DNA of 32,000 nt from Copranaerobaculum intestinale (GTDB lineage: Bacteria; Bacillota_I; Bacilli_A; Erysipelotrichales; Erysipelotrichaceae): contig NZ_WUUQ01000001.1 in assembly GCF_009831105.1 (NCBI RefSeq), positions 270,001 through 302,000 on the forward strand, given 5' to 3'. Shown piece by piece: positions 5,797 through 25,890 of this stretch. Each line of letters starts with the position of its first letter. Within the stretch, counting starts at the first letter, position 1. The notes under the pieces were generated by a model that ran no database searches, was not told where the DNA came from, and saw only the letters and a list, made by a program, of their open reading frames with translations. Position numbers and translations under genes: made by a program.

Positions 5797-8700
5797 CTAA
5801 CGGCCTCGGAAATAATTTACACCATTCAGAAAGATATCCTGAACCTTATTTCCGTCAATATTTTTCATAAGTCCTTCTTCGTAACGCTCACAGTGTCCCA
5901 TTTTACCGAAGATATGACCGTCGACCGAAGTGATGCCTTCAATGGCATAGCTGGAACCGTTCACGTTGAAGGCTCCGTTCATGGTCGGATTGCCCTCTAA
6001 ATCGGTATACTGCGTTGCGATCTGACCGTTGGCAAACAATTCTTTCGCTACCTCTTCATCAACCACAAATTTACCTTCACCATGTGAGAATGCAATGTTA
6101 TGCAGTTCTCCTGGCGTGAAGCTGGATAACCATGGTGATTTGTTGGAAGCGATCTGTGTCATCGCCATACGGGAAACGTGACGGTTGATATTGTTTCGAA
6201 ACAGCGTCGGCGAAGCTTCATCAAGCTTCGTGATGTCGCCGTATGGAAGCAGCCCGGATTTGATCAGCGCCTGGAATCCGTTACAGATGCCGAGAATTAA
6301 TCCATCATTGGCAAGCAGGGTTTGAACTGCCTGATATACCTGTTCGTTCTGCAAAACATTGGCGATAAATTTCCCGCTTCCGTCCGGTTCATCACCGCTG
6401 GAGAAGCCGCCAACAAGCATCAGAATCTGTGACGATGCAATTTTTTCACTCAATTCTTTCAAAGAGCGTTTTACCGCTTCGACAGAAAGATTATTAAAAA
6501 CATACACTTCCACCTCGGCACCGGCCCGTTCAAACTGCTGTTTCGTATCATACTCGCAGTTGTTGCCAGGGAATACCGGGATTATTACTTTTGGTTTATC
6601 AATTCTGGTACGAGCATGTTTATGCTCTTGGATATGATACAGCGGTGTTTGTACCGGCTTACCATCCGTATCCGTTTTCGTTGGATACAGCTGCTCATAA
6701 CGACTCATCCATTTTGCGATCGCTTCTTCCATGTTCAAGGATACACCATTGATGACAATTTCATCACCGCCGGTTTCACCCAGCAGAATGAAATTTTCGT
6801 CCTGTATATCTTCCGTTGCCTCCACCAGCAAAGAACCGATGGAAAGTGCGAATAACGCTTCTTCTGTATCAACGCGAATACCGATTTTATTGCCAAAGCT
6901 CATCTTGCATAAGGTTTCCGCAATACCGCCGAATTTCACGGTTGCGGCAGAAAGAATCGTTTTCTTTTTAATATACGAATGAACGGTATCAAAGTTTTTA
7001 TTCAGTGCTTCATAATCCGGAGTTTCATCATCATGGATCGGATGCTTGACCAAATAAATCTTGGAACCGGATTTTTTCCATTCGCTGGAGATGATATTGC
7101 CTGTATTGCCAGTCGCAACCGCAAACGTGATGATCGTTGGCGGAACGCTGATATTCTTATAAGTACCGCTCATGCTGTCCTTGCCGCCGATTGCCGGAGT
7201 CTTAAACGCCAGCTGTGCTTCAATGACACCCAATAGTGCCTGTGCCGGCTTGCCCCAGCGCACTTCATCCTGATGCAGCCGCTCGAAGTATTCCTGACAA
7301 GTCAAGCGTGCTTTATGTATATCGCCACCGACTGCCGCCACTCTGGCAAGTGCTTCGACAACTGAATAAGCACCGGCCAGATATGGCGAATAACAGCTCA
7401 CGCCTGGGTGAAATCCATAGGACATGATGCTGCAGGTATCGGTTAACCCCATAACCGGAAGCTTTTGGACGGATGCTTCACTCTCCGTCAGCTGATATTT
7501 ACCGCCGTAAGGCATGAGAACCGTTGATTTCCCGATCGTTGAATCGAACATCTCAACCAATCCCTTTTGTGAAGCGGTATTCTCTTTCGCCAAATTTTCC
7601 AGCAGATTTTCTTTGGTGCAGACTTCCTCATGGTGAAATGGATTTTCATCCTGTTCCACGGTGGTGATCGTTACCTTCTGATGCTGACGAACACCGTTGG
7701 TATCAAGAAAGGCGCGGGATATGTCGACGATTGTTTCTCCTTTACAGTGCATGACCAAACGATTATCATCGGTAACTACCGCAACTTTTGTCGCATCCAG
7801 ATTTTCCTGATACGCCAATTCTTTAAAGGCTTCAAACTGAGCAGCTTCAATAACCACAGCCATACGCTCTTGACTTTCGCTGATTGCCAGCTCAGTTCCA
7901 TTCAGACCGCGGTATTTTACCGGAACGACATCCAGATCAATATCAATGCCGGGTGCCAGTTCACCGATCGCAACACTCACGCCGCCCGCTCCGAAATCAT
8001 TGGAACGCTTGATCATACGCGTTGCTTCGGGATTGCGGAATAATCGCTGCAGCTTTCTTTCCACCGGGGCATTTCCCTTTTGAACTTCACTGGAGCATTT
8101 CGTTAAAGAAGATTCATTATGTTCTTTAGAAGAACCGGTTGCTCCGCCGATACCGTCACGTCCGGTTGCTCCGCCTAATAATACAACAATATCTCCGGCA
8201 CACGGCTCCTTGCGTACAACCCAAGCCTTCGGAGCTGCCCCGACAACCGCGCCAACCTCCATACGTTTCGCAACATATCCCTCATGATACAGCTCTTTTA
8301 CATACGTAGTCGCCAGTCCGATTTGATTACCATAAGAGGAATAACCCTGTGCGGCTGATTTTGATATCACGCTCTGCGGCAGCTTATTCGCTAATGTATC
8401 GTTCAAATCCTTATTAATATCTCCAGCGCCGGTAATCCGCATCGCCTGATAAACATAGCTTCTTCCCGACAGCGGATCACGGATCGCTCCGCCGATACAC
8501 GTACTGGCACCGCCAAACGGTTCGATTTCGGTCGGATGATTATGGGTTTCATTCTTAAACATTAACAGCCATGGCTCTTTCACCCCATTGACATCCACTT
8601 CGATTTCCACACTGCAGGCATTGATCTCCTCACTTACCTCCAGATCGTCCAAATAACCGGTTTTGCGCAGATATTTACCGGCTATCGTAGCCATATCCAT

Positions 8701-9501
8701 CAGGGTCATGTATTTCTTTTCCCCGTGTACTGCTTTCCGCAGTTCTACATAATCATCATAAACCTTTTGTAATTGATCATGAAACTTACCGGCTGTAATC
8801 GTTACTTCATCCAGCACCGTTTCAAAGGTCGTATGACGGCAGTGATCGCTCCAATAGGTATCAAGCACTTTGATCTCAGTAATTGTCGGGTCGCGCTGTT
8901 CTTCATTATCAAAATATTTCTGGATGTGCAGCAGATCTTCATCGCTCATCGCCAGACCTTCATTTTCCCGGTATGCGGCGATTTCTTTCTCGCTCCAACC
9001 GCAAAATCCATCGATCGTCAGCACCGGTTCGATCTCCACTTCTTCCTCACAGGCAAGCACAGATAAATCCTTTTCACGCATTTCTACCGGATTGATCAGA
9101 TATTTGCGTACTGCCTGCATGGTGACTTCATCCACAGCACCTTCAAAAACAACAAGTTTACCGCTCTTGATGATAACTTCTTCCTTATTATTCAGCAGCA
9201 TTAAGCATTGCTGCGCGCTGTCCGAACGCTGATCATACTGTCCCGGCAGATATTCCATCGCAATGTATGACTTTCCTTCCAAGGCTAGATCATTCAGCAC
9301 TTCATCCGTTACCACCTCGGACAGCACCCGCTGTTTTAGGAGTGCTATATCCTGATCATCCGCATGAAATACATCATAGATATTAAACAGCTGCAGTGAT
9401 GTAACGCCGGATAAATCAAAATTTGTTTTCAGTTCCTCGAAAAGTGACTGTGATTCGATTCGATAGGCAGGCTTCTTTGTAACATAGATACGTGTATTCA
9501 T
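5797..9501 (-). CDS. purL: phosphoribosylformylglycinamidine (FGAM) synthase, single-chain large form with fused glutaminase domain
   Basis: 1234 aa. It has an N-terminal PurS-like region, duplicated AIRS-type domains (DHCRHTTF, ETHNHP) and a C-terminal class-I amidotransferase (GICNGFQAL, HGEG). Confidence 0.95.
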   Translation of the reverse strand: MNTRIYVTKKPAYRIESQSLFEELKTNFDLSGVTSLQLFNIYDVFHADDQDIALLKQRVLSEVVTDEVLNDLALEGKSYIAMEYLPGQYDQRSDSAQQCLMLLNNKEEVIIKSGKLVVFEGAVDEVTMQAVRKYLINPVEMREKDLSVLACEEEVEIEPVLTIDGFCGWSEKEIAAYRENEGLAMSDEDLLHIQKYFDNEEQRDPTITEIKVLDTYWSDHCRHTTFETVLDEVTITAGKFHDQLQKVYDDYVELRKAVHGEKKYMTLMDMATIAGKYLRKTGYLDDLEVSEEINACSVEIEVDVNGVKEPWLLMFKNETHNHPTEIEPFGGASTCIGGAIRDPLSGRSYVYQAMRITGAGDINKDLNDTLANKLPQSVISKSAAQGYSSYGNQIGLATTYVKELYHEGYVAKRMEVGAVVGAAPKAWVVRKEPCAGDIVVLLGGATGRDGIGGATGSSKEHNESSLTKCSSEVQKGNAPVERKLQRLFRNPEATRMIKRSNDFGAGGVSVAIGELAPGIDIDLDVVPVKYRGLNGTELAISESQERMAVVIEAAQFEAFKELAYQENLDATKVAVVTDDNRLVMHCKGETIVDISRAFLDTNGVRQHQKVTITTVEQDENPFHHEEVCTKENLLENLAKENTASQKGLVEMFDSTIGKSTVLMPYGGKYQLTESEASVQKLPVMGLTDTCSIMSYGFHPGVSCYSPYLAGAYSVVEALARVAAVGGDIHKARLTCQEYFERLHQDEVRWGKPAQALLGVIEAQLAFKTPAIGGKDSMSGTYKNISVPPTIITFAVATGNTGNIISSEWKKSGSKIYLVKHPIHDDETPDYEALNKNFDTVHSYIKKKTILSAATVKFGGIAETLCKMSFGNKIGIRVDTEEALFALSIGSLLVEATEDIQDENFILLGETGGDEIVINGVSLNMEEAIAKWMSRYEQLYPTKTDTDGKPVQTPLYHIQEHKHARTRIDKPKVIIPVFPGNNCEYDTKQQFERAGAEVEVYVFNNLSVEAVKRSLKELSEKIASSQILMLVGGFSSGDEPDGSGKFIANVLQNEQVYQAVQTLLANDGLILGICNGFQALIKSGLLPYGDITKLDEASPTLFRNNINRHVSRMAMTQIASNKSPWLSSFTPGELHNIAFSHGEGKFVVDEEVAKELFANGQIATQYTDLEGNPTMNGAFNVNGSSYAIEGITSVDGHIFGKMGHCERYEEGLMKNIDGNKVQDIFLNGVNYFRGR

Positions 9502-9516
9502 AAGATTCTCCTCTGT

Positions 9517-10608
9517 TTATATAATCGCGGCTTCCGCTTCTTGAATCAATTCTTCCAAATTTTCACCCCAGAAGGTGATATGTCCCATTTTACGATTGAT
9601 CCGTGCTTCCGGTTTTCCATACAGGTATAAACGGGCGTGATCGGGAAGCTCATGACTGACTGCCGCTTCCAGATACTGCCCCAGGACATTCACCATCACA
9701 CATGGCTTGGTTATAGCCGGCTCCAGCACATCGCCGTTCAGAATTGCACGCAGAGCATTTTCGTATTGACTGACTTGATAACCATCCATAGTAAGGTGTC
9801 CGCTGTTGTGGGGACGCGGTGCGATTTCATTCACGTAAATCTCTCCGTCTTTCCCAACAAACATTTCAATCGCCACGATACCAATGAAATCAAGGCGATC
9901 CATTATCTGTATGGCAATCCGCTTCGCCTTGTTTTTCATCACATCATCGACTCTTGCCGGTGAAATGGACAAATGCAGAATGCCATTTTCATGAATGTTT
10001 TCGATCGGTTCAAAAGTAATCGTCTTGCCGGTCTTCCCGCGTACGGCAATTACGGATATCTCACATGCGAAATCGACCATCGATTCCACAATGTATTCAT
10101 TCGCTTTGAACTGGGTAACAAAATCATACAGATCAAAATCATTACGGATGACCCACTGTCCTTTTCCATCATAGCCGCCGGTACAGGTCTTGATAAGAAA
10201 AGGATATTCCATAAGGCGGGATAGCGATTGTGCTTCTTCAATCGTATGTAATGGTAAAAAATTCGCTGTCTTGATGCCTGCCTCATGAATGCTGGTTTTT
10301 TCGGTAATTCGATGCTGAGCAATTAACAGCGGCTTCTTTCCCTGCGGAACATTCGCATGTATGGATTTGAGAAAATCAATGACCTCGGCTTTGACATTTT
10401 CAAATTCATAGGTGATGACATCGCTTTGTGATGCAAGGATACTGAGCGCGTCATGATCATCATATTCCGCGCATACAAACTCATCGCTGTTTTGCCGTGC
10501 CGAAGCATCATGTCCCGGATCCAGCACGACCGTGGTATGACCGAGTGCATGAGCGGCATCGACCAGATACATGCCCAGCTGTCCGCCGCCGATAATACCT
10601 ACTCGCAT
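9517..10608 (-). CDS. purK: N5-carboxyaminoimidazole ribonucleotide synthase (ATP-grasp)
   Basis: 363 aa. [13 protein letters not shown]-terminus and ATP-grasp core ([19 protein letters not shown]). Confidence 0.93.
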
Positions 10609-11090
10609 ACTTCAATCAGCGCGTCATCCAGCACTGTCTGGGTTTGTTTATGACGATATTCCTGCAGCCGTTTCGCAACTGCTTCATCTTGAAGCCCCAC
10701 GATCTGCGCGGCCAGAATTCCAGCATTTTTCGCACCTGCGGTACCGATCGCAACGGTCGCAACCGGAATGCCTCCCGGCATCTGAACGATGGAAAGCAGC
10801 GAATCCAAACCATTCAGCGCTTTCGACTGAACCGGAACACCGATTACCGGTAAGGTAGTCATGGCCGCAACCATGCCCGGTAAATGAGCTGCCCCTCCGG
10901 CGCCCGCAATGATCACCTGAATGCCGTTTCTCTTTGCTTCTTTTGCATACTCAACCATCGAATGCGGAGTACGGTGAGCGGAAATCACTTTTACTTCATA
11001 GGAAATCTGAAATTCTTTCAGCATATCCACAGCGTTCTGCATTGTCGCAAGATCGCTGCGGCTACCCATAATAACACTTACTTTTGCCAT
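10599..11090 (-). CDS. purE: N5-carboxyaminoimidazole ribonucleotide mutase
   Basis: 163 aa. Motifs [15 protein letters not shown] and [19 protein letters not shown] upstream. Overlaps purK by 10 nt. Confidence 0.95.
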
Positions 11091-11266: not shown

Positions 11267-11291
11267 CAAAAGTCGAAAAAGCAAAAATCCG

Positions 11292-11358
11292 CTTGTAGTC
11301 CGCCGATTTACGGTCAGCAGGTAGAAACTTGTCATCCATATCATGACTATTATACAAG
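11292..11358 (-). promoter_or_regulatory. purine riboswitch aptamer, guanine/hypoxanthine-specific type
   Basis: The minus strand reads CTTGTATAATAGTCATGATATGGATGACAAGTTTCTACCTGCTGACCGTAAATCGGCGGACTACAAG. P1 is CTTGTA/TACAAG. P2 is GTCAT-GATATGG-ATGAC. P3 is CTGCTGA-CCGTAAA-TCGGCGG. The conserved junctions TATAAT, GTTTCTACC and GACTA are present. The specificity position is C (GAC-TA), as in xpt-type guanine sensors. Confidence 0.93.
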
Positions 11359-11377
11359 CATAACTATTTACATTTTT

Positions 11378-19523: not shown

Positions 19524-19772
19524 TTACAAAAAATAAAATACAAACATCAAAATGAATACTATTTTAAAAACGATCAAAAACCTATTGAGATGGCCGGTTA
19601 TACAATAACTTAGATTCGATCTTACACCAAACATATTCATGCTTATGATAGGAAATGAATATAAAATGTCAGCAATCCCTAAAATAATGATTCTAGCAAG
19701 AAAATCAAGTTACTATTTAATAACTTCATCTAATTCTTCATAAGAAAAATTTTCATCTTTCTTTGATGTCAT
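19524..19772 (-). pseudogene. small ORF interrupted by tandem in-frame stops (19-codon peptide plus hydrophobic remainder)
   Basis: The ATG at 19772-19770 overlaps the stop of the 88-aa ORF (TAATG). It reads MTSKKDENFSYEELDEVIK, then TAG TAA (19715-19710). The same frame then continues for 61 codons as LDFLARIIILGIADILYSFPIISMNMFGVRSNLSYCITGHLNRFLIVFKIVFILMFVFYFL, ending in TAA TAA. Confidence 0.3.
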
Positions 19773-20038
19773 TACAATAAATCAATAATCAGCATGATTG
19801 CCTCTATACACACACCGATGAAAAAAATTTTAGCGACGATAGTACGATTTTCCAATTTTGCTTTTCTAGCCTCGTAGATAATCCATCCAAGACCCGCTAA
19901 AGCATCAATGACTGTACTTGTTTGATGATTAATAATTTTATTGAAGTAAAGTACTCCTGAAATGACTATACAAATTAATAATACGATAAGGGATCCATAT
20001 TTTTTTATAAACGTTTCCTCTTTTATCTTTTTTTCCAT
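19772..20038 (-). CDS. small membrane protein (88 aa, about three hydrophobic helices), function unknown
   Basis: Intact ORF with a purine-rich RBS (GAAAGGAAAAAGGG) upstream. The N-terminus is charged and is followed by hydrophobic segments. I recognise no family. Confidence 0.5.
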   Translation of the reverse strand: MEKKIKEETFIKKYGSLIVLLICIVISGVLYFNKIINHQTSTVIDALAGLGWIIYEARKAKLENRTIVAKIFFIGVCIEAIMLIIDLL

Positions 20039-20397
20039 AATCTTAAACCCTTTTTCCTTTCTAAATATTTGTGCTAATTATCATAATAGCTCATCGTTTA
20101 ACAGATTTAAATTATCCAAATTCAATTATTGATCCCATCAGATAAATCATGATAATTGCCTCCCTTCGCACCCATTAATCAACCTTAACTCTGACAACTT
20201 TATTGTATCAAGTTATCTATATATGTGAATAGATTTGGTATGAGATGTCACTTTTTATGTATGAAATGCATTATTTTTGATTTTCTTAAAACTCATCATT
20301 ACTAAAAACTACAACCTTATTAAAAGCTTATTGAATTATGTTAAGATTTGGATTGAGAATCTAAAGATGTGTTTCAGAAACTATTTTCAGGAAAGTG

Positions 20398-20426
20398 TTG
20401 CAATTATTTTCATTTAGGTTTATGAT
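20398..20426 (+). promoter_or_regulatory. sigma-A-type promoter of the aro operon
   Basis: TTGCAA (20398-20403), 17 nt spacer, TATGAT (20421-20426). Confidence 0.6.
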
Positions 20427-20448
20427 ATACATGCTTGGAGTGATAAAT

Positions 20449-20490
20449 ATGAAAATCCAAACTCAGAACTATTATTTTTATTTTAGATAG
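20449..20490 (+). CDS. candidate aromatic-amino-acid leader peptide MKIQTQNYYFYFR
   Basis: GGAG (20437-20440) lies 8 nt upstream of the ATG at 20449. The ORF has 13 sense codons plus TAG. Codons 8-12 (20470-20484) are Tyr-Tyr-Phe-Tyr-Phe. It lies between the promoter and aroB and abuts a set of alternative hairpins. Confidence 0.55.
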   Translation: MKIQTQNYYFYFR

Positions 20491-20580
20491 TCCCAAATAA
20501 ACCATCAAAAGATTGTATGGTTATTTTGTTGTTTATTTGGGACAAAAAAAGCACAGACGATTAAGTTGGTGCTTTTTTTT
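20490..20580 (+). promoter_or_regulatory. candidate attenuator: mutually exclusive hairpins plus terminator-like stem
   Basis: A perfect 13-bp helix forms between GTCCCAAATAAAC (20490-20502) and GTTTATTTGGGAC (20531-20543). The same 5' arm can alternatively pair with 20517-20528. U-rich 20521-20529 is complementary (8 of 9) to 20542-20550. A7-GCAC (20544-20554) and GTGC-T8 (20569-20580) form a terminator-like hairpin that ends 19 nt before the aroB ATG. Confidence 0.45.
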
Positions 20581-20599
20581 CATTAAAGGAGGGCAGATC

Positions 20600-21601
20600 A
20601 TGAAACTAACAATGGACTTAGAGACAAATAGCTATGATATCCATTTGGATAACGGACTTCTTCATAAAATAGCAGATTTTATGGACGTCCACCGCAAAGT
20701 GATGGTTGTAACCGACAGCGGGGTTCCAGGTCAATATCTGGATACGGTTATGAAGCAGCTTTCTCACCCTTATTCCTATTGTTTAAAGGCCGGTGAATCC
20801 AGCAAAACTCTGGAAAATTTCAAAGCGGTATGTAAAGCTATGCTTGATCACCACTTTACCAGAAAGGATGCTGTGCTTGCGCTGGGAGGCGGTGTAGTCG
20901 GTGATTTGGCTGGGTTTGCGGCGGCGAGTTATATGCGGGGCATTGACTTCATTAATATTCCCACTACTACCCTCGCTCAGATTGACAGCAGTATCGGCGG
21001 TAAAGTGGCGGTAGATCTGGATGACGCAAAAAATATCATCGGTGCTTTCTATCAGCCGAAAACGGTTATTATCGATCCGCTTGTACTTTCCACATTATCA
21101 AAGCGGCATTATCGTAACGGACTTGTAGAAGCGTTGAAAGCAGGACTGATCTATGATCGTGAGTTATTTGAAATCTTTGAGAATGAGGATATTCACGCTT
21201 CCTTGGAAACAATTCTCGAGCGATCACTGAGGGTTAAAAAAGCCGTGGTTGAAGCGGATGAAAAAGAAAAAGGTATACGCAAAATTCTGAATTTCGGACA
21301 TACGATCGGACATGGTATTGAGAGTGCCGGCGGACTGACAGCGCTCCTGCATGGAGAGGCGGTTGCGTTGGGCATGCTGCCGATGATTGAAGATGAGCAG
21401 CTGCGAAAGCGATGCCGAGATATCTATAAAAAGTTAGATCTGCCACTTACCTATGACTTGTCTAAGGAAGCTATTTACGAATGGATGCTGAAAGATAAAA
21501 AAGCAGATGGCGAAGATCTGATTACCATCGTCAAGGTGGCAGAATGCGGAAAAGCAAAACTGGTTACTGTCCCATTCATTGATTTATATAACTATCTGTA
21601 A
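20600..21601 (+). CDS. aroB: 3-dehydroquinate synthase
   Basis: About 333 aa. Motifs GGGVVGDLAGFAAASYMRGIDFINIPTTTLAQIDSSIGGKVAVDL and the metal-site pattern LNFGHTIGH...HGEAVA. I moved the start from the track's 20513 to the ATG at 20600, which follows an AAAGGAGGG RBS. The track's extension runs through the leader hairpins. Confidence 0.93.
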   Translation: MKLTMDLETNSYDIHLDNGLLHKIADFMDVHRKVMVVTDSGVPGQYLDTVMKQLSHPYSYCLKAGESSKTLENFKAVCKAMLDHHFTRKDAVLALGGGVVGDLAGFAAASYMRGIDFINIPTTTLAQIDSSIGGKVAVDLDDAKNIIGAFYQPKTVIIDPLVLSTLSKRHYRNGLVEALKAGLIYDRELFEIFENEDIHASLETILERSLRVKKAVVEADEKEKGIRKILNFGHTIGHGIESAGGLTALLHGEAVALGMLPMIEDEQLRKRCRDIYKKLDLPLTYDLSKEAIYEWMLKDKKADGEDLITIVKVAECGKAKLVTVPFIDLYNYL

Positions 21602-21611
21602 GGGGAACAAT

Positions 21612-22712
21612 ATGAAAAATACATTTGGAACAAATATCACCTATACATTATTTGGAGAAAGCCACGGCGAGGCAGTTGGCATTGTCATCGACGGTCTGCC
21701 GGCGGGCATTCTCATCGATCAAAAGTTCATCGCTGAGCAGATGGATAAGCGCAAAGCAGTCGGTAAAATATCCACCCAGCGTCACGAAGCGGATAAAGTG
21801 GAAATTATCAGTGGGTTGTTTGAAGGACATACAACCGGAACACCGCTTACTATGCTGATAAAAAATACCGCTCAGCATAGTAATGACTATCAATCACTGC
21901 GATACCGAGTGCGCCCCGGTCATGCAGATTATACAGCACATGTAAAATATCATGGTAATCAGGACTATCGAGGCGGCGGACATTTCAGTGGACGTCTGAC
22001 CGCTCCTATCGTAGCTGCCGGGGCAGTGGCTATGCAGCTGCTGCAAACCATGAATATCGATATGGGTACTCACATATTGCAGTGTCATCAGATAAAGGAT
22101 AATTCGTTCAGTGATAACAAAGCAACGCTCAAGGATCAAATACAACGGCTGAAAGAAACCGAATTTCCGGTTCTTGAGCCTGCTATTGGCAAGGATATGA
22201 TTCAGTTTATTGAGAAAACTGCCCATATGAAAGACAGTGTCGGCGGCGTACTCGAAACGGCTGTCATCAATGTACCGGCGGGATTGGGAGAACCATTCTT
22301 CAATTCTATGGAAAGCACTCTCTCACAGCTATTATTTTCAATTCCCGGTGTAAAAGGAGTAAGCTTCGGATCAGGCACTGCTTTTGCAGATCATTACGGC
22401 AGTGAAATGAACGATTCCTTTATATATGAGGAAGGTGTAAAAACAGCTACCAATCATAACGGAGGTATCAATGGCGGTATTACCAATGGAATGCCTTTAC
22501 GGTTTACAACGATTATAAAACCAACCCCATCTATCTATAAGCCGCAAAATACTATTGATTTGGAAACAAATAAAGAAGTATCATTAACCATTCAAGGCAG
22601 ACATGATCCTGCTATCATCCACCGCGCTCGCATCGTCGTAGATGCCGTTACCGCAATCGGAATATTAGAAGCAATTACATGTTCACAGGCGATTGAGCCG
22701 TTCTATTCATAA
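21612..22712 (+). CDS. aroC: chorismate synthase
   Basis: Motifs FGESHGEAVGIVIDGLPAG, RPGHADY, GGGHFSGR and GRHDP. I moved the start to the ATG at 21612 (MKNTFG...), which follows an AAGGGG RBS. Confidence 0.93.
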   Translation: MKNTFGTNITYTLFGESHGEAVGIVIDGLPAGILIDQKFIAEQMDKRKAVGKISTQRHEADKVEIISGLFEGHTTGTPLTMLIKNTAQHSNDYQSLRYRVRPGHADYTAHVKYHGNQDYRGGGHFSGRLTAPIVAAGAVAMQLLQTMNIDMGTHILQCHQIKDNSFSDNKATLKDQIQRLKETEFPVLEPAIGKDMIQFIEKTAHMKDSVGGVLETAVINVPAGLGEPFFNSMESTLSQLLFSIPGVKGVSFGSGTAFADHYGSEMNDSFIYEEGVKTATNHNGGINGGITNGMPLRFTTIIKPTPSIYKPQNTIDLETNKEVSLTIQGRHDPAIIHRARIVVDAVTAIGILEAITCSQAIEPFYS

Positions 22713-22728
22713 GAGGAAGGAAACTATC

Positions 22729-23745
22729 ATGATTATAACAATGAAAAAAGACGCACCAAAAGAAGAAATCGACCGTATTATCCAAAGCATTGAAAATAAA
22801 GGACTCAATGTTAATATGATATCAGGAACAAATTACAATGTATTTGGGGTGGTTGGTGATACGACCATTCTGGATGCGAAACAAATTGAAGCAAATAAGC
22901 ATGTCGAAAATGTTGTACGGGTTGCCGCTCCTTACAAGAAAGTAAATCGTTTATTTCACCCCGAAGACAGCATTATCGATGTCGCAGGCATCAAAGTAGG
23001 AGGCAAGGAAAATATTGTTGTTATCGGTGGTCCTTGCAGTGTTGAAGGTCAAGAGCAGATTACTGAAATCGCAAAAGAAGTAAAAGCAGCCGGTGGCGTT
23101 ATGCTTCGCGGCGGTGCTTACAAACCGCGCACTTCTCCTTATGCCTTTCAGGGTATGGGAAGCGAAGGAATCAAATGCATGGTAAATGCCCGAAAAGCGA
23201 CTGGGCTGCCAATCGTCAGTGAAATCATGAGCATTGATAAAATAGATGAATTTGTTGAAAATGTTGACTTGATTCAAGTCGGAGCCCGCAATATGCAGAA
23301 TTTCGATCTGCTGAAAGCACTAGGTAAGATCAACAAACCGATTCTGTTGAAGCGCGGATTATCCAATACGATCGAAGAATGGCTGATGTCTGCTGAATAT
23401 ATTATGGCCGGCGGAAATGAGAATGTAATACTGTGTGAACGCGGTATTCGTACGTTTGAAAAATACACTCGTAATACCTTGGATCTCAGTGTTGTTCCGA
23501 TCGTGAAAAAGAAAAGTCATCTGCCGATCATCATTGATCCATCTCATGCGACCGGTGACTGGGAGCTTGTAGAATCAATGAGCTTAGCGGCTATTGCCGC
23601 CGGGGCTGATGGTCTGATTATTGAAGTTCATAATTGTCCGGAATGCGCATGGAGTGACGGCATGCAAAGCTTAAAACCGGAACGATTTGCTGAGGTAATC
23701 CGTAAAGGCAGAGCAATCGCTCAGGTTATCGGCAGAGATATCTGA
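22729..23745 (+). CDS. aroF: 3-deoxy-7-phosphoheptulonate (DAHP) synthase, type I-beta with N-terminal ferredoxin-like regulatory domain
   Basis: The catalytic barrel has GPCSVEG, RGGAYKPRTSPY.FQG, KRG and DPSH motifs. An N-terminal extension of about 70 aa (MIITMKKDAPKEEIDRIIQSIENKGLNV...) resembles the Thermotoga-type regulatory domain. I moved the start to the ATG at 22729, which follows an AGAGGAAGG RBS. Confidence 0.9.
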   Translation: MIITMKKDAPKEEIDRIIQSIENKGLNVNMISGTNYNVFGVVGDTTILDAKQIEANKHVENVVRVAAPYKKVNRLFHPEDSIIDVAGIKVGGKENIVVIGGPCSVEGQEQITEIAKEVKAAGGVMLRGGAYKPRTSPYAFQGMGSEGIKCMVNARKATGLPIVSEIMSIDKIDEFVENVDLIQVGARNMQNFDLLKALGKINKPILLKRGLSNTIEEWLMSAEYIMAGGNENVILCERGIRTFEKYTRNTLDLSVVPIVKKKSHLPIIIDPSHATGDWELVESMSLAAIAAGADGLIIEVHNCPECAWSDGMQSLKPERFAEVIRKGRAIAQVIGRDI

Positions 23746-25016
23746 TGAAAGCAGTAGTATATCCGTTTCACCCTGCCGGTACCGTTACTGTTCCACCCAG
23801 CAAAAGCATGTCACATCGCGCAATCATCTGTGCTTCACTCGCTTCCGGAACCAGCATAATCCGTAATATTGCATGGTCTGAAGATATTCTGGTTACATTG
23901 GAAGGAATGAAAAAATTGGGTGCGCACATCAATCAATATGATGATTATGCGGAAATCACCGGCATCCAAAGCTTTCAGGATATTCAGGATACAAATATCT
24001 TCTGTAATGAATCAGGCAGTACCCTTCGATTTTTCATTCCGATATTTTCTCTTTGTAAGCAAGCAATTACATTTCATGGACAGGGAAGACTAATGCAGCG
24101 GCCGCAGAGTGTATATAAAGAGATATTCGATCGGCAACATTTATCCTTTCAACAGGATCAAGATCATATCAAAATAAACGGTCAGCTGCAAGCCGGTGAA
24201 TATACCGTGCGAGGTGATATCAGCTCTCAATTCATCAGCGGCCTATTATTCACCCTTCCTCTCTTGGATAAGAAATCAATTATCCATATCATGGAGCCTT
24301 TTGAATCTCGTTCCTATATTCAACTGACAATTGATATGCTGAAACGGTTTCAGATTGATGTTGAATGGCTGGATGAAAATACGATTGCAGTTGAGGGCAA
24401 GCAACACTATCAACCATGCGATTATACGATTGAAGGAGATTTTTCACAGTTTGCTTTTTTTGGAGTATTGGCGGCAATCAATCATGATCTCTGCATTAAA
24501 GGTATGGATATTACTTCTAAACAGGGTGATAAGGCAATTCTTTCAATATTGGAGCAGGCTGGCATTACTGTTCATACCGAGGAAAACGGCTATCAGATCC
24601 AACATGGTATCATCAATCCGATAACCATTGATTTGCAGGATTGTCCTGATTTAGGACCAATTCTGACCGTTCTGGGCATGTATGCAAAAGGAACGATTCA
24701 AATCATTCATGCCGGCAGATTACGCATCAAGGAAAGTGATCGGATTGAAGCCATGGAAACAGAGCTTCGTAAATGCGGAGTCAATATTCATTCTACGCAG
24801 GATACTATTACCATATGTGGTAAAACACAGTATCAGGGCGGTGTGCATTTTAACGGACATAATGATCATAGAATTGTCATGAGTCTAGCAATAGCGGCTT
24901 CTCGAATGGAACAGCCATGCACCATCCATGGTGCTCAGGCTATACGAAAGTCCTATCCGAATTTTTTCCAAGATTTACAGAAAATCGGCGGCAAGGTGGT
25001 GATCTCAGATGATTGA
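23745..25016 (+). CDS. aroA: 3-phosphoshikimate 1-carboxyvinyltransferase (EPSP synthase)
   Basis: 423 aa. Motifs PPSKSMSHRA, NESGSTLRF, RMQRP-like LMQRPQ, SSQFISGLL and KESDRI. ATGA overlap with the preceding gene. Confidence 0.93.
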   Translation: MKAVVYPFHPAGTVTVPPSKSMSHRAIICASLASGTSIIRNIAWSEDILVTLEGMKKLGAHINQYDDYAEITGIQSFQDIQDTNIFCNESGSTLRFFIPIFSLCKQAITFHGQGRLMQRPQSVYKEIFDRQHLSFQQDQDHIKINGQLQAGEYTVRGDISSQFISGLLFTLPLLDKKSIIHIMEPFESRSYIQLTIDMLKRFQIDVEWLDENTIAVEGKQHYQPCDYTIEGDFSQFAFFGVLAAINHDLCIKGMDITSKQGDKAILSILEQAGITVHTEENGYQIQHGIINPITIDLQDCPDLGPILTVLGMYAKGTIQIIHAGRLRIKESDRIEAMETELRKCGVNIHSTQDTITICGKTQYQGGVHFNGHNDHRIVMSLAIAASRMEQPCTIHGAQAIRKSYPNFFQDLQKIGGKVVISDD

Positions 25017-25890
25017 TAAGGATACAAAATTTCTAATTGTTGGATTAGGGTTGATCGGCGGCAGCTATGCAATGGGCTTAACCCGTCAGGGATATCATGT
25101 CAGCGCGCTTGACACCAATGAAGACAGCATTCAATTTGCACTAGATCATCAATATATTGAGAATGGTGCTGTTTTCGATGAAAAATTGATTCAGGATGCA
25201 GATGTTATTATTTCTGCATTATATCCACTAACCATGATTGATTGGATTTCCACCTATCAGGAATTCTTCAAATCAGGTATTCTCATCACTGATGTTAGCG
25301 GGGTCAAGCAGCATATCGTTGAGACCGTTCAGCGAAATCTCAGAAAGGATGTTGAATTTATCGCTTCTCATCCAATGGCCGGAAAAGAAGTCAGCGGGGT
25401 AAGAAACAGTGATGATCATATTTTTGAAATCGCAAATTTCATAATCACGCCAACTCCAAACAATTCCAAAAGGGCAATCGCATTTATGAAGGATTTTGCG
25501 GCAATTCTGAACTTTCACCATATTACAACGTTAACGCCTAAACAACATGATGAAATGATCGGCTTTGTATCCCAGCTAACACATGTAATCGCGGTTAGTC
25601 TCATGAATACCAACGACAATACTCATCTTGTCGAATACACCGGTGACAGCTTCCGTGATCTAACCCGTATTGCAAAGATCAATGAAAATATGTGGTCAGA
25701 GCTATTTTTTCTAAACAAGGATAATCTTATTCGGGAAATCGAAGATTTTGAGAAAGAGCTCAATCACTTAAAACAAAAGCTGGCAGACAATGATGAAGCC
25801 GGTTTAAAAGCACTTTTCCGTCAGTCTACCCAGCGTCGTACGCTTTTCGACAAAATTGATAAGCCTGATCAGCATAAAAGCAATCAATAA
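25009..25890 (+). CDS. tyrA: prephenate dehydrogenase
   Basis: 293 aa. Rossmann motif IVGLGLIGGS, then ASHPMAGKE, then the PDH dimerisation domain (FRDLTRIA..N..MW). Overlaps aroA by 8 nt. Confidence 0.9.
   Translation: MIDKDTKFLIVGLGLIGGSYAMGLTRQGYHVSALDTNEDSIQFALDHQYIENGAVFDEKLIQDADVIISALYPLTMIDWISTYQEFFKSGILITDVSGVKQHIVETVQRNLRKDVEFIASHPMAGKEVSGVRNSDDHIFEIANFIITPTPNNSKRAIAFMKDFAAILNFHHITTLTPKQHDEMIGFVSQLTHVIAVSLMNTNDNTHLVEYTGDSFRDLTRIAKINENMWSELFFLNKDNLIREIEDFEKELNHLKQKLADNDEAGLKALFRQSTQRRTLFDKIDKPDQHKSNQ

Follow-up and report, generated by a model that had tools for sequence, protein, structure and literature searches.

We found that the leader in front of the aromatic operon aroB-aroC-DAHP synthase-aroA-tyrA of Copranaerobaculum intestinale, a member of the Erysipelotrichaceae, very probably acts as a Tyr/Phe-sensing leader-peptide transcription attenuator of this shikimate/tyrosine operon, as judged from its sequence. 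The leader lies in a stretch of 32,000 nucleotides of this genome (contig NZ_WUUQ01000001.1, positions 270,001 to 302,000), which is called the window here and from whose first base all coordinates are counted. We assign it to this class of regulator because of short open reading frames (mini-ORFs) that recur in its relatives, the aromatic enrichment of their products, a covarying hairpin (P1) that abuts the stop codon, a U-tract terminator and the absence of any Rfam family covering it. The explanation as a whole, in which the supply of charged tRNA-Tyr and tRNA-Phe would set the switch, is one that we hold with only slightly less confidence. For comparison we used related aro regions (loci labelled L and a number), which were collected via AroB or DAHP synthase and blind to the leader. 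An initial annotation of this DNA had proposed a ribosome-mediated Tyr/Phe attenuator here, and the combination of mini-ORF, aromatic run, stop-abutting hairpin and U-tract terminator was found to recur in ~30 Erysipelotrichaceae lineages. Our results indicate that this earlier interpretation was right in kind and that its switching detail was wrong or at least unsupported.

The leader, all on the plus strand, opens with a sigma-70-type promoter (20398-20426), in which the -35 hexamer TTGCAA (20398-20403) and the -10 hexamer TATGAT (20421-20426) are separated by a 17-nt spacer. A promoter scanner also lists this site, with 9 of 12 matches; the match by itself is not above chance, with 9 promoter-like sites found against 6.3 +/- 2.3 in shuffled sequences. 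Both hexamers are kept in register in relatives, as TTGCAT-17-TATGAT in L162 and L163 and as TTGCAA-17-TATTAT in L081. Transcription from this promoter would start at about 20431-20433, leaving a 5' untranslated region (5' UTR) of only ~16 nt. The Shine-Dalgarno (SD) region GGAGTGAT (20437-20444) begins with GGAG (20437-20440), 8 nt upstream of the ATG at 20449, and GGAGTGAT or a close variant stands ahead of most leaders in the related loci. We take it to resemble the extended complement of the 16S rRNA 3' end. The leader ORF (20449-20490) has 13 codons and a UAG stop codon at 20488-20490, reads ATG AAA ATC CAA ACT CAG AAC TAT TAT TTT TAT TTT AGA TAG and encodes the peptide MKIQTQNYYFYFR. Its codons 8-12 (UAU UAU UUU UAU UUU, 20470-20484) specify Tyr-Tyr-Phe-Tyr-Phe and are the putative sensor. 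The promoter, SD, ORF and aromatic run had all been claimed in the initial annotation and were read directly from the sequence at the same positions, as were the perfect helix opened by the stop-codon G, the U-rich complementarity and the terminator-like hairpin described below.

Next, we compared the mini-ORF across relatives. At the equivalent position in related aro operons there are 31 distinct leader peptides of 8-18 codons, and the distance from these SD-bearing mini-ORFs, with their C-terminal Tyr/Phe run, to the first aro gene downstream is 130-200 nt. The carriers are Longicatena, Anaerorhabdus, Holdemania, Massilicoli and many other Erysipelotrichaceae, ~30 lineages in all. The final 7 residues of the 31 peptides are 66% aromatic (Y 84, F 59, W 1) compared with 5% in the remainder, and the N-terminal residues are unconserved. 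Tyr and Phe interchange between relatives, and synonymous codon changes occur as well. Peptides of the nearest relatives are MLFKKHSYYFYFR, MRKICRHSYYFYFR, MQKFSQFFYFYFES and MRNKKANNIVFRFYFR; more distant ones include MIQKAYFYYFE, MHNKGFYYYL, MLFNRYYYYC, MRMSVYFYYYG and MKKPTCLKGFFYYFR. When the mini-ORF was defined formally (ATG, SD, 8-20 codons and at least 4 aromatics among the last 7), 32 matches were obtained on both strands of 432 kb, and 29 of these were the leaders, which leaves a background of ~3. Thus the check on related leaders that had been suggested with the initial annotation came out in its favour: the mini-ORF and its aromatic run are conserved, and P1 covaries.

Relatives share the layout of the leader and differ in the N-terminal residues, in the arms of P1 and even in which gene comes first in the operon. 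At L174 (~2070-2230) a leader with the peptide MYKNTSSTFYFTF, a P1 and a terminator stands ahead of a fusion of shikimate dehydrogenase and shikimate kinase (aroE/aroK), followed by DAHP synthase. This leader precedes a different aro operon, indicating that the leader follows the pathway and not aroB. In the related loci, no leader was found ahead of aroB where aroB directly follows another gene of its operon. Most leaders have exactly one sense codon between the last aromatic codon and the stop codon. In the window and the related loci most leaders end in UAG, often as UUU AGA UAG; the most frequent stop codon of AT-rich genomes is usually UAA. The choice of UAG may come from its G, which gives the first pair of P1. 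The leader of L005 (MKWRYTYY, 8 codons, ~100 nt upstream of aroB) is the only one with a Trp codon. Apparent leaders in Faecalibacterium and Gemmiger, such as MPHVPFEYYFYVEL, were rejected, as they are actually the C-terminus of the upstream gene.

The leaders fall into two architectures, class A and class B, with a common front end of promoter, SD, ORF and stop-abutting hairpin. Class A comprises the window and ~20 lineages. In the window P1 spans 20490-20543 and consists of an outer 13-bp helix (20490-20502 with 20531-20543) and an inner hairpin region (20503-20528). The outer helix is perfect, with 5 G-C and 8 A-U pairs, and G20490 of the stop codon is its first base. Among class A leaders the distance between the end of the stop codon and the first base of this helix is -2 to +2 nt, and each of the 31 mini-ORFs has a P1 that begins no more than 2 nt from its stop. 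Its first 7 pairs are 99% canonical in 17 lineages, in which 14 distinct arm sequences and 3-5 pair types per position occur. The arms were defined by folding each sequence, which biases the figure toward pairing; a control that limits this bias, in which the partner was slid by 1-3 nt, brought canonical pairing down to 37-48%.

Inside P1, a CCA..UGG core and a U run were present in all class A leaders. In the window they are found in the conserved AUGGUUAUUUUG (20517-20528), which provides the 3' strand of the inner hairpin with the CCA..UGG core and then TTATTT (20521-20526). In 12 of 17 lineages an exact TTNTTT comes directly behind this hairpin. In B. subtilis the TTNTTT motif marks NusG-dependent pauses; it acts in the non-template strand and is often preceded by a hairpin, and ~20% of some 1600 NusG pauses of that organism lie in 5' leaders (bioRxiv 10.1101/2022.10.28.514324; PMC11602163). 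We tentatively suggest from this motif that the TTNTTT hairpin could act as a synchronising pause, although the odds are somewhat against it. A second ORF starting at the conserved AUGG (20517) was considered and rejected; it has no SD, and its frame and length vary among the window, L001, L003 and L081. Frameshift read-through at the U-rich codons was rejected too, as both other frames of the window reach a stop within a few codons.

Downstream of P1, class A leaders have a linker of 1-10 nt and then a weak terminator with loops of up to 12 nt, and a hairpin with a U tract was found at the terminator position in every leader examined. In the window the linker is an A7 tract (20544-20550) that can pair with either the U tract or the U-rich strand 20521-20529. 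Of the 9 positions of the latter (UUAUUUUGU), 8 are complementary to 20542-20550 (ACAAAAAAA). The intrinsic terminator (20551-20580) has the 5' arm GCACAGAC (20551-20558, including GCAC at 20551-20554), the loop GAUUAA (20559-20564), the 3' arm GUUGGUGC (20565-20572, including GTGC at 20569-20572) and U8 (20573-20580), which ends 19 nt ahead of the aroB ATG. The ribosome-binding site of aroB, AAAGGAGGG (20585-20593), and its start codon (20600-20602) follow, and tblastn matches of relatives begin at residue 1 of the frame that starts at 20600. The core stem GCACAGAC/GUUGGUGC is weak (about -7 to -8 kcal/mol without the A:U extension) and contains an A.G mismatch; owing to this internal mismatch, a simple terminator scanner missed the hairpin.

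When the 169-nt leader was folded, P1 and the A:U-extended terminator hairpin were obtained at -41.7 kcal/mol. This corresponds to z = -3.8 against dinucleotide shuffles, of which 0 of 200 folded as well. The minimum-energy fold also pairs the leader SD (GGAGUGAUA, 20437-20445) with the Tyr/Phe codons (UAUUAUUUU, 20470-20480) through many G-U pairs, and this pairing appears in the folds of L162 and L167. As a real element the SD pairing was rejected, being not above shuffled controls; it may be a by-product of composition.

Known RNA families were then compared with the leader. At the gathering thresholds of Rfam 15, neither the window leader nor the leaders of 15 relatives are covered by any family, and the only match in the window was a purine riboswitch away from the leader. 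Scans of 35 related loci found nothing in the leaders, and a permissive scan of 20000-20650 gave chance-level matches only, including Phe_leader. The T-box covariance model had no match in the window or in the 35 related loci, leader-bearing and leaderless. A known family covering the leader had been named in advance as evidence against the attenuator, and none was found.

How the position of the ribosome could reach the terminator is most readable in class B (L015, L016, L020, L028, L048, L050, L054 and L059), in which P1 is smaller and a spacer of ~40 nt carries a third strand. A ribosome footprint, from -15 to +11 relative to the first base of the A-site codon, was placed on each codon in turn, and the terminator-stem probability was computed for each placement. 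In L015, L020 and L028 the predicted structure switches: when one of the first four Tyr/Phe codons occupied the A site, the terminator probability fell to 0.02-0.57 (minima 0.02, 0.09 and 0.11), and it was 0.90-0.96 at the last and stop codons and 0.69-0.92 without a ribosome. In the predicted structures, strand 3 pairs with the terminator 5' arm when P1 is closed; when a ribosome at the stop codon covers the P1 5' arm, the P1 3' arm takes strand 3 and the terminator forms. Without a ribosome, strand 3 can in several class B leaders also be captured by the end of the ORF (UUAGAUAGCC). The complementarity of strands 2 and 3 exceeds that of shuffled sequences (mean z = -3.8, below -2 in 8 of 8), the 3:4 pairing has z < -2 in 5 of 8 and the 0:3 pairing in 4 of 8, and two of three control pairings average near zero. 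Together, these models suggest that class B is an explicit relay of P1, anti-antiterminator, antiterminator and terminator.

The geometry of the window was considered in the same terms. A ribosome needs single-stranded mRNA up to ~8-11 nt past the first base of its A-site codon, as known from toeprint and helicase data. The final Phe codon of the window leader begins 6 nt ahead of the stop codon, whose last base opens P1. A ribosome stalled for lack of Tyr- or Phe-tRNA would therefore leave P1 closed, and by the same reach a ribosome at the stop codon would open 7-10 of the 13 P1 pairs, including the G-C-rich base. This arrangement fits the class B relay and contradicts the idea that a stalled ribosome masks the 5' arm.

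We propose the following course of events. Transcription would begin just upstream of a strong ribosome-binding site, and a ribosome would translate the 13-codon leader, with the Tyr/Phe codons 8-12 serving as a timer that delays its progress. The inner hairpin and TTATTT, just before the P1 3' arm, would hold RNA polymerase until the position of the ribosome has been decided. When amino acids are plentiful, the ribosome would have finished the run and would stand at the stop codon, so that P1 could not close and transcription would terminate. When Tyr or Phe is scarce, the ribosome would still be within the run, P1 would close and the polymerase would read through into aroB. The step from the state of P1 to the terminator is inferred for the window by analogy with class B, which alone displays the relay in silico; by that analogy, it is possible, if somewhat less than an even chance, that the terminating ribosome and the closed P1 are the operative signal in the window.

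A more specific version would be a completion-sensing attenuator, in which the effector is the stop-codon ribosome prying P1 open, the aromatic run is a delay line and a NusG-type pause times the race. For the window this would mean that a weak, factor-dependent terminator is suppressed by the closed P1, with no antiterminator helix involved. We regard this version as speculative and rather unlikely. If it were true, such a coupling of an upstream hairpin to termination would be a mode undescribed for leader-peptide attenuators.

Several observations weigh against the attenuator and its proposed working. L006, a near relative of L005, has a degenerate leader ORF that has lost its aromatic codons and stop. 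L006 keeps the downstream hairpin and terminator, and may represent a decaying leader or an assembly error. RNA polymerase in Bacillota often outruns the ribosome, which makes leader-peptide control harder without a pause, and the pause is known here only as a motif match. The terminator cores of class A leaders are weak (-5 to -9 kcal/mol). In addition, equilibrium folding detected no antiterminator and no helix competing between P1 and the terminator in class A, including the window; such folding misses kinetic effects, and its negatives are no proof of absence. The terminator probability of the window was 0.93 at every simulated ribosome position (0.73-0.97 in class A). Opening the P1 5' arm brought the terminator probability below 0.3 in 3 of 16 class A leaders, against 2.57 with shuffled interiors. 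The complementarity between the leader initiation region and the terminator was at background as well (mean z = -0.28, p = 0.21).

The class A pairings that stood out were P1, the terminator and, in a Longicatena-like subset, the initiation region with the P1 3' half. Other pairings were tried and rejected. An antiterminator between the P1 3' half and the terminator gave duplex z-scores that were not significant and a masking test at chance. The translation initiation region or 5' UTR of the leader was rejected as an antiterminator strand; it pairs with the P1 3' half only in the Longicatena-like subset, and its pairing with the terminator is not significant. A pairing of the P1 5' arm with either the 3' arm or the loop of the terminator occurs in L162, L163 and L081 but is inconsistent, and pairing of the P1 3' arm with the terminator loop, as a pseudoknot helper, was strong in L167 and L025 only. 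In the Longicatena-like subset (L001, L003, L009, L010, L025, L030 and L085) the leader SD/ATG is complementary to the P1 3' half, with duplexes of -15 to -20 kcal/mol and z of -2.3 to -5.5. There this pairing replaces P1 in the unconstrained minimum-energy fold, which is not evident in the window. Possible roles are a one-shot lock on translation and the third strand of a relay.

The best-surviving alternative is the classical logic, which the initial annotation had favoured. Here the stalled ribosome would mask the P1 5' arm, the freed U-rich 3' half would pair with the A-rich linker and the first bases of the terminator 5' arm, the terminator would be weakened and read-through would follow. 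The 8-of-9 complementarity of 20521-20529 with 20542-20550 is consistent with it, and the U-rich strand and the A tract are indeed paired in the structure predicted for a masked 5' arm. L167, L004 and L026 lose the terminator in silico when their 5' arm is opened, and with so weak a terminator core the A:U extension could matter. The geometry, however, allows stalled ribosomes to reach at most the first 0-4 pairs of P1, since the last aromatic codon lies 6 nt before the stop, so the 5' arm proper is out of reach. The A tract that the U-rich strand was supposed to sequester is not conserved either; the closest relatives have AUAUACAA (L162), CACACAAA (L163) and AGACAAA (L167) in place of A7. 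Weakening of the terminator by stalling was not borne out: its probability stayed the same under all footprints, that of its GC core was 0.93-0.95 under masks of up to 12 nt, and the effect of opening the 5' arm was at the level expected from shuffles. The complementarity of S3S4 with the 5' arm gave z = +0.6. An alternative pairing of the 5' arm with 20517-20528, also part of the earlier proposal, exists in that 20494-20505 gives 10 of 12 pairs, and so holds only partially. Taken together, these results make the classical logic unlikely.

A somewhat weaker alternative, which we consider improbable, is that the terminator is fixed and partial and that control acts on mRNA stability. A ribosome stalled near the 5' end, together with P1, would shield read-through transcripts from 5'-to-3' decay, and starvation would raise their stability. 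The 5' UTR of ~16 nt would indeed put a stalled ribosome near the 5' end, the architecture of the window shows no detectable antiterminator, and stalled ribosomes on the ermC leader of B. subtilis are known to act as 5' stabilisers. The clear antiterminator relay of the class B leaders nevertheless argues for attenuation in this family, and a stabiliser has no need of the strict juxtaposition of stop codon and P1.

It is very improbable that P1 is a site for a protein or small ligand, such that an RNA-binding regulator or riboswitch controls the terminator and the mini-ORF is incidental or auxiliary. At -20 kcal/mol P1 far exceeds the stability that a simple sensor helix would require, and its shape, too, is conserved beyond that requirement; the inner hairpin sequence is conserved, and the link from P1 to the terminator is unexplained, all of which would suit such a site. 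On the other hand, the outer arms vary freely (14 variants), a CCA..UGG hairpin and a U run would not suffice for a ligand pocket, no Rfam family matches, and the aromatic run is conserved at the codon level and tied to the geometry of stop and P1. Finally, a chance ORF, for which one may say that TTT and TAT triplets are common in AT-rich spacers, or a small functional peptide without a regulatory role, which the unconserved N-terminal residues fit poorly, is effectively refuted by the background of ~3 matches in 432 kb outside leaders and the aromatic statistics of the family, with position, SD, stop-P1 geometry and terminator all conserved. The Tyr/Phe-sensing attenuator thus remains our preferred reading of this leader.

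We then asked how the leader relates to known systems. T-box leaders are the usual amino-acid sensors of Bacillota, whose amino-acid operons are textbook cases of T-box, TRAP or protein control. They are alike in position and task, being 5' leaders that sense tRNA charging and control a terminator; the window leader, in contrast, is at ~150 nt too short for a T-box and contains a predicted translated ORF. The enterobacterial pheL (RF01859), trp, his and thr leaders likewise have a short ORF rich in cognate codons, alternative hairpins and a terminator. The window scored 18.6 bits (E = 2) against the Phe_leader model RF01859, whose threshold is 55 bits, and so is not a member. The stalled ribosome of pheL and trpL itself masks strand 1, of which the regulatory codons are part, whereas in the window these codons lie upstream of P1, which is abutted by the stop codon.

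The Acholeplasma lineage is usually placed near the Erysipelotrichales, and the closest published relative is the uORFC-13-1 motif, which was described in Acholeplasma upstream of aroF (DAHP synthase; Brewer et al. 2021, RNA Biol, PMC8632094). It consists of a -35/-10 promoter, a ribosome-binding site, a start codon, a short upstream ORF with a Phe-coding U run ('at least one phenylalanine'), an extra base-paired substructure and an adjacent terminator, and has 24 representatives, from Acholeplasma and environmental sequences only and always upstream of aroF (PMC8632094). As compared by verbal description, the window has all of these layout elements. It differs in that its first gene is aroB and DAHP synthase is third (second in L174), and in having a Tyr/Phe run. 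The window leader is probably the Erysipelotrichaceae counterpart of this motif.

In Corynebacterium glutamicum, a Phe-Tyr-Phe leader peptide, aroR, precedes a DAHP synthase operon (Neshat et al. 2014, in PMC11802643). According to PMC11802643, ribosome stalling on aroR enhances read-through, and the response is reported to be to Phe and not to Tyr supply. The initial annotation had cited aroR as a Phe/Tyr leader upstream of aroF, which that paper bears out. We regard aroR as a functional analogue from the Actinobacteria without a sequence relationship to the window leader; it has three regulatory codons compared with a run of 4-6 in the Erysipelotrichaceae leaders. Other leader-peptide attenuators are known from the literature in bacilli and staphylococci. 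Ashniev et al. (2022, PMC9413887) predicted histidine leader-peptide attenuators in the Bacillus cereus group, in Peptostreptococcaceae and in six species of Erysipelotrichales, and hisS/hisZ leader-peptide attenuators in bacilli have been reported (PMC2965389). They likewise have a leader peptide directly upstream of attenuator, terminator and antiterminator hairpins; their codons are for histidine and their operons are his, with no aromatic counterpart described in these two papers. In the full-text literature, which was incompletely covered, we found no aromatic leader described for Erysipelotrichaceae.

The regulated operon spans 20600-25890 on the plus strand. Pfam identified its five genes, in agreement with the initial annotation, as 3-dehydroquinate synthase (aroB, 20600-21601, E 5e-46), chorismate synthase (~21579-22712, start uncertain, E 2e-122), DAHP synthase with an FXD domain (~22729-23745, E 2e-78), EPSP synthase (23745-25016, E 2e-86) and prephenate dehydrogenase (25009-25890, E 1e-22). 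A 338-aa protein found in 'Clostridiaceae bacterium DONG20-135' and in Erysipelotrichaceae metagenome-assembled genomes has 100% identity with the DAHP synthase, and for the enzymes of Massilicoli timonensis, Traorella and Holdemania filiformis the identity is 78-83%. AroB is far less conserved, its top matches among species-representative genomes and metagenomes being 60-63% identical. Close relatives (L162, L163/L164, L165, L167/L168, L169-L173 and L175) have two tandem DAHP synthase genes of 338 aa each, and the window has one. In some relatives aroE/aroK and a type II dehydroquinase are inserted in the aro operon.

Elsewhere in the window, a purine riboswitch (RF00167, 86.9 bits) was found at 11276-11377 on the minus strand. 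It lies upstream of purE (10599-11090), purK (9517-10608) and the FGAM synthase gene (5797-9501), and is an ordinary pur operon leader. L163 has the same purine riboswitch beside its aro leader region. An 88-aa ORF (19772-20038, minus strand) lies opposite in strand to aro and has no Pfam match, and nothing was identified in the AT-rich spacer of ~360 nt (20039-20397) between it and the aro promoter. In L175, a transfer-messenger RNA gene (RF00023, 158 bits, 256-601) lies ~2 kb upstream of the aro leader.

Leader-peptide attenuation is a known kind of switch, and in the literature covered it had not been described for the aromatic operons of Erysipelotrichaceae. A conserved Tyr/Phe attenuator in these common gut bacteria would enlarge the small set of leader-peptide systems in Bacillota and fill a gap in the regulation of the common aromatic pathway in this family. 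It would also provide an annotation rule for ~30 or more lineages, whose mini-ORFs go uncalled as genes. The two architectures share a front end, followed in one by a readable multi-strand relay and in the other by no visible antiterminator, and so offer a compact natural system for how ribosome position reaches a terminator where transcription and translation are poorly coupled. Hosts such as Longicatena caecimuris, Holdemania filiformis and Massilicoli timonensis, which public records list as named species or strains, may allow this to be tested directly.

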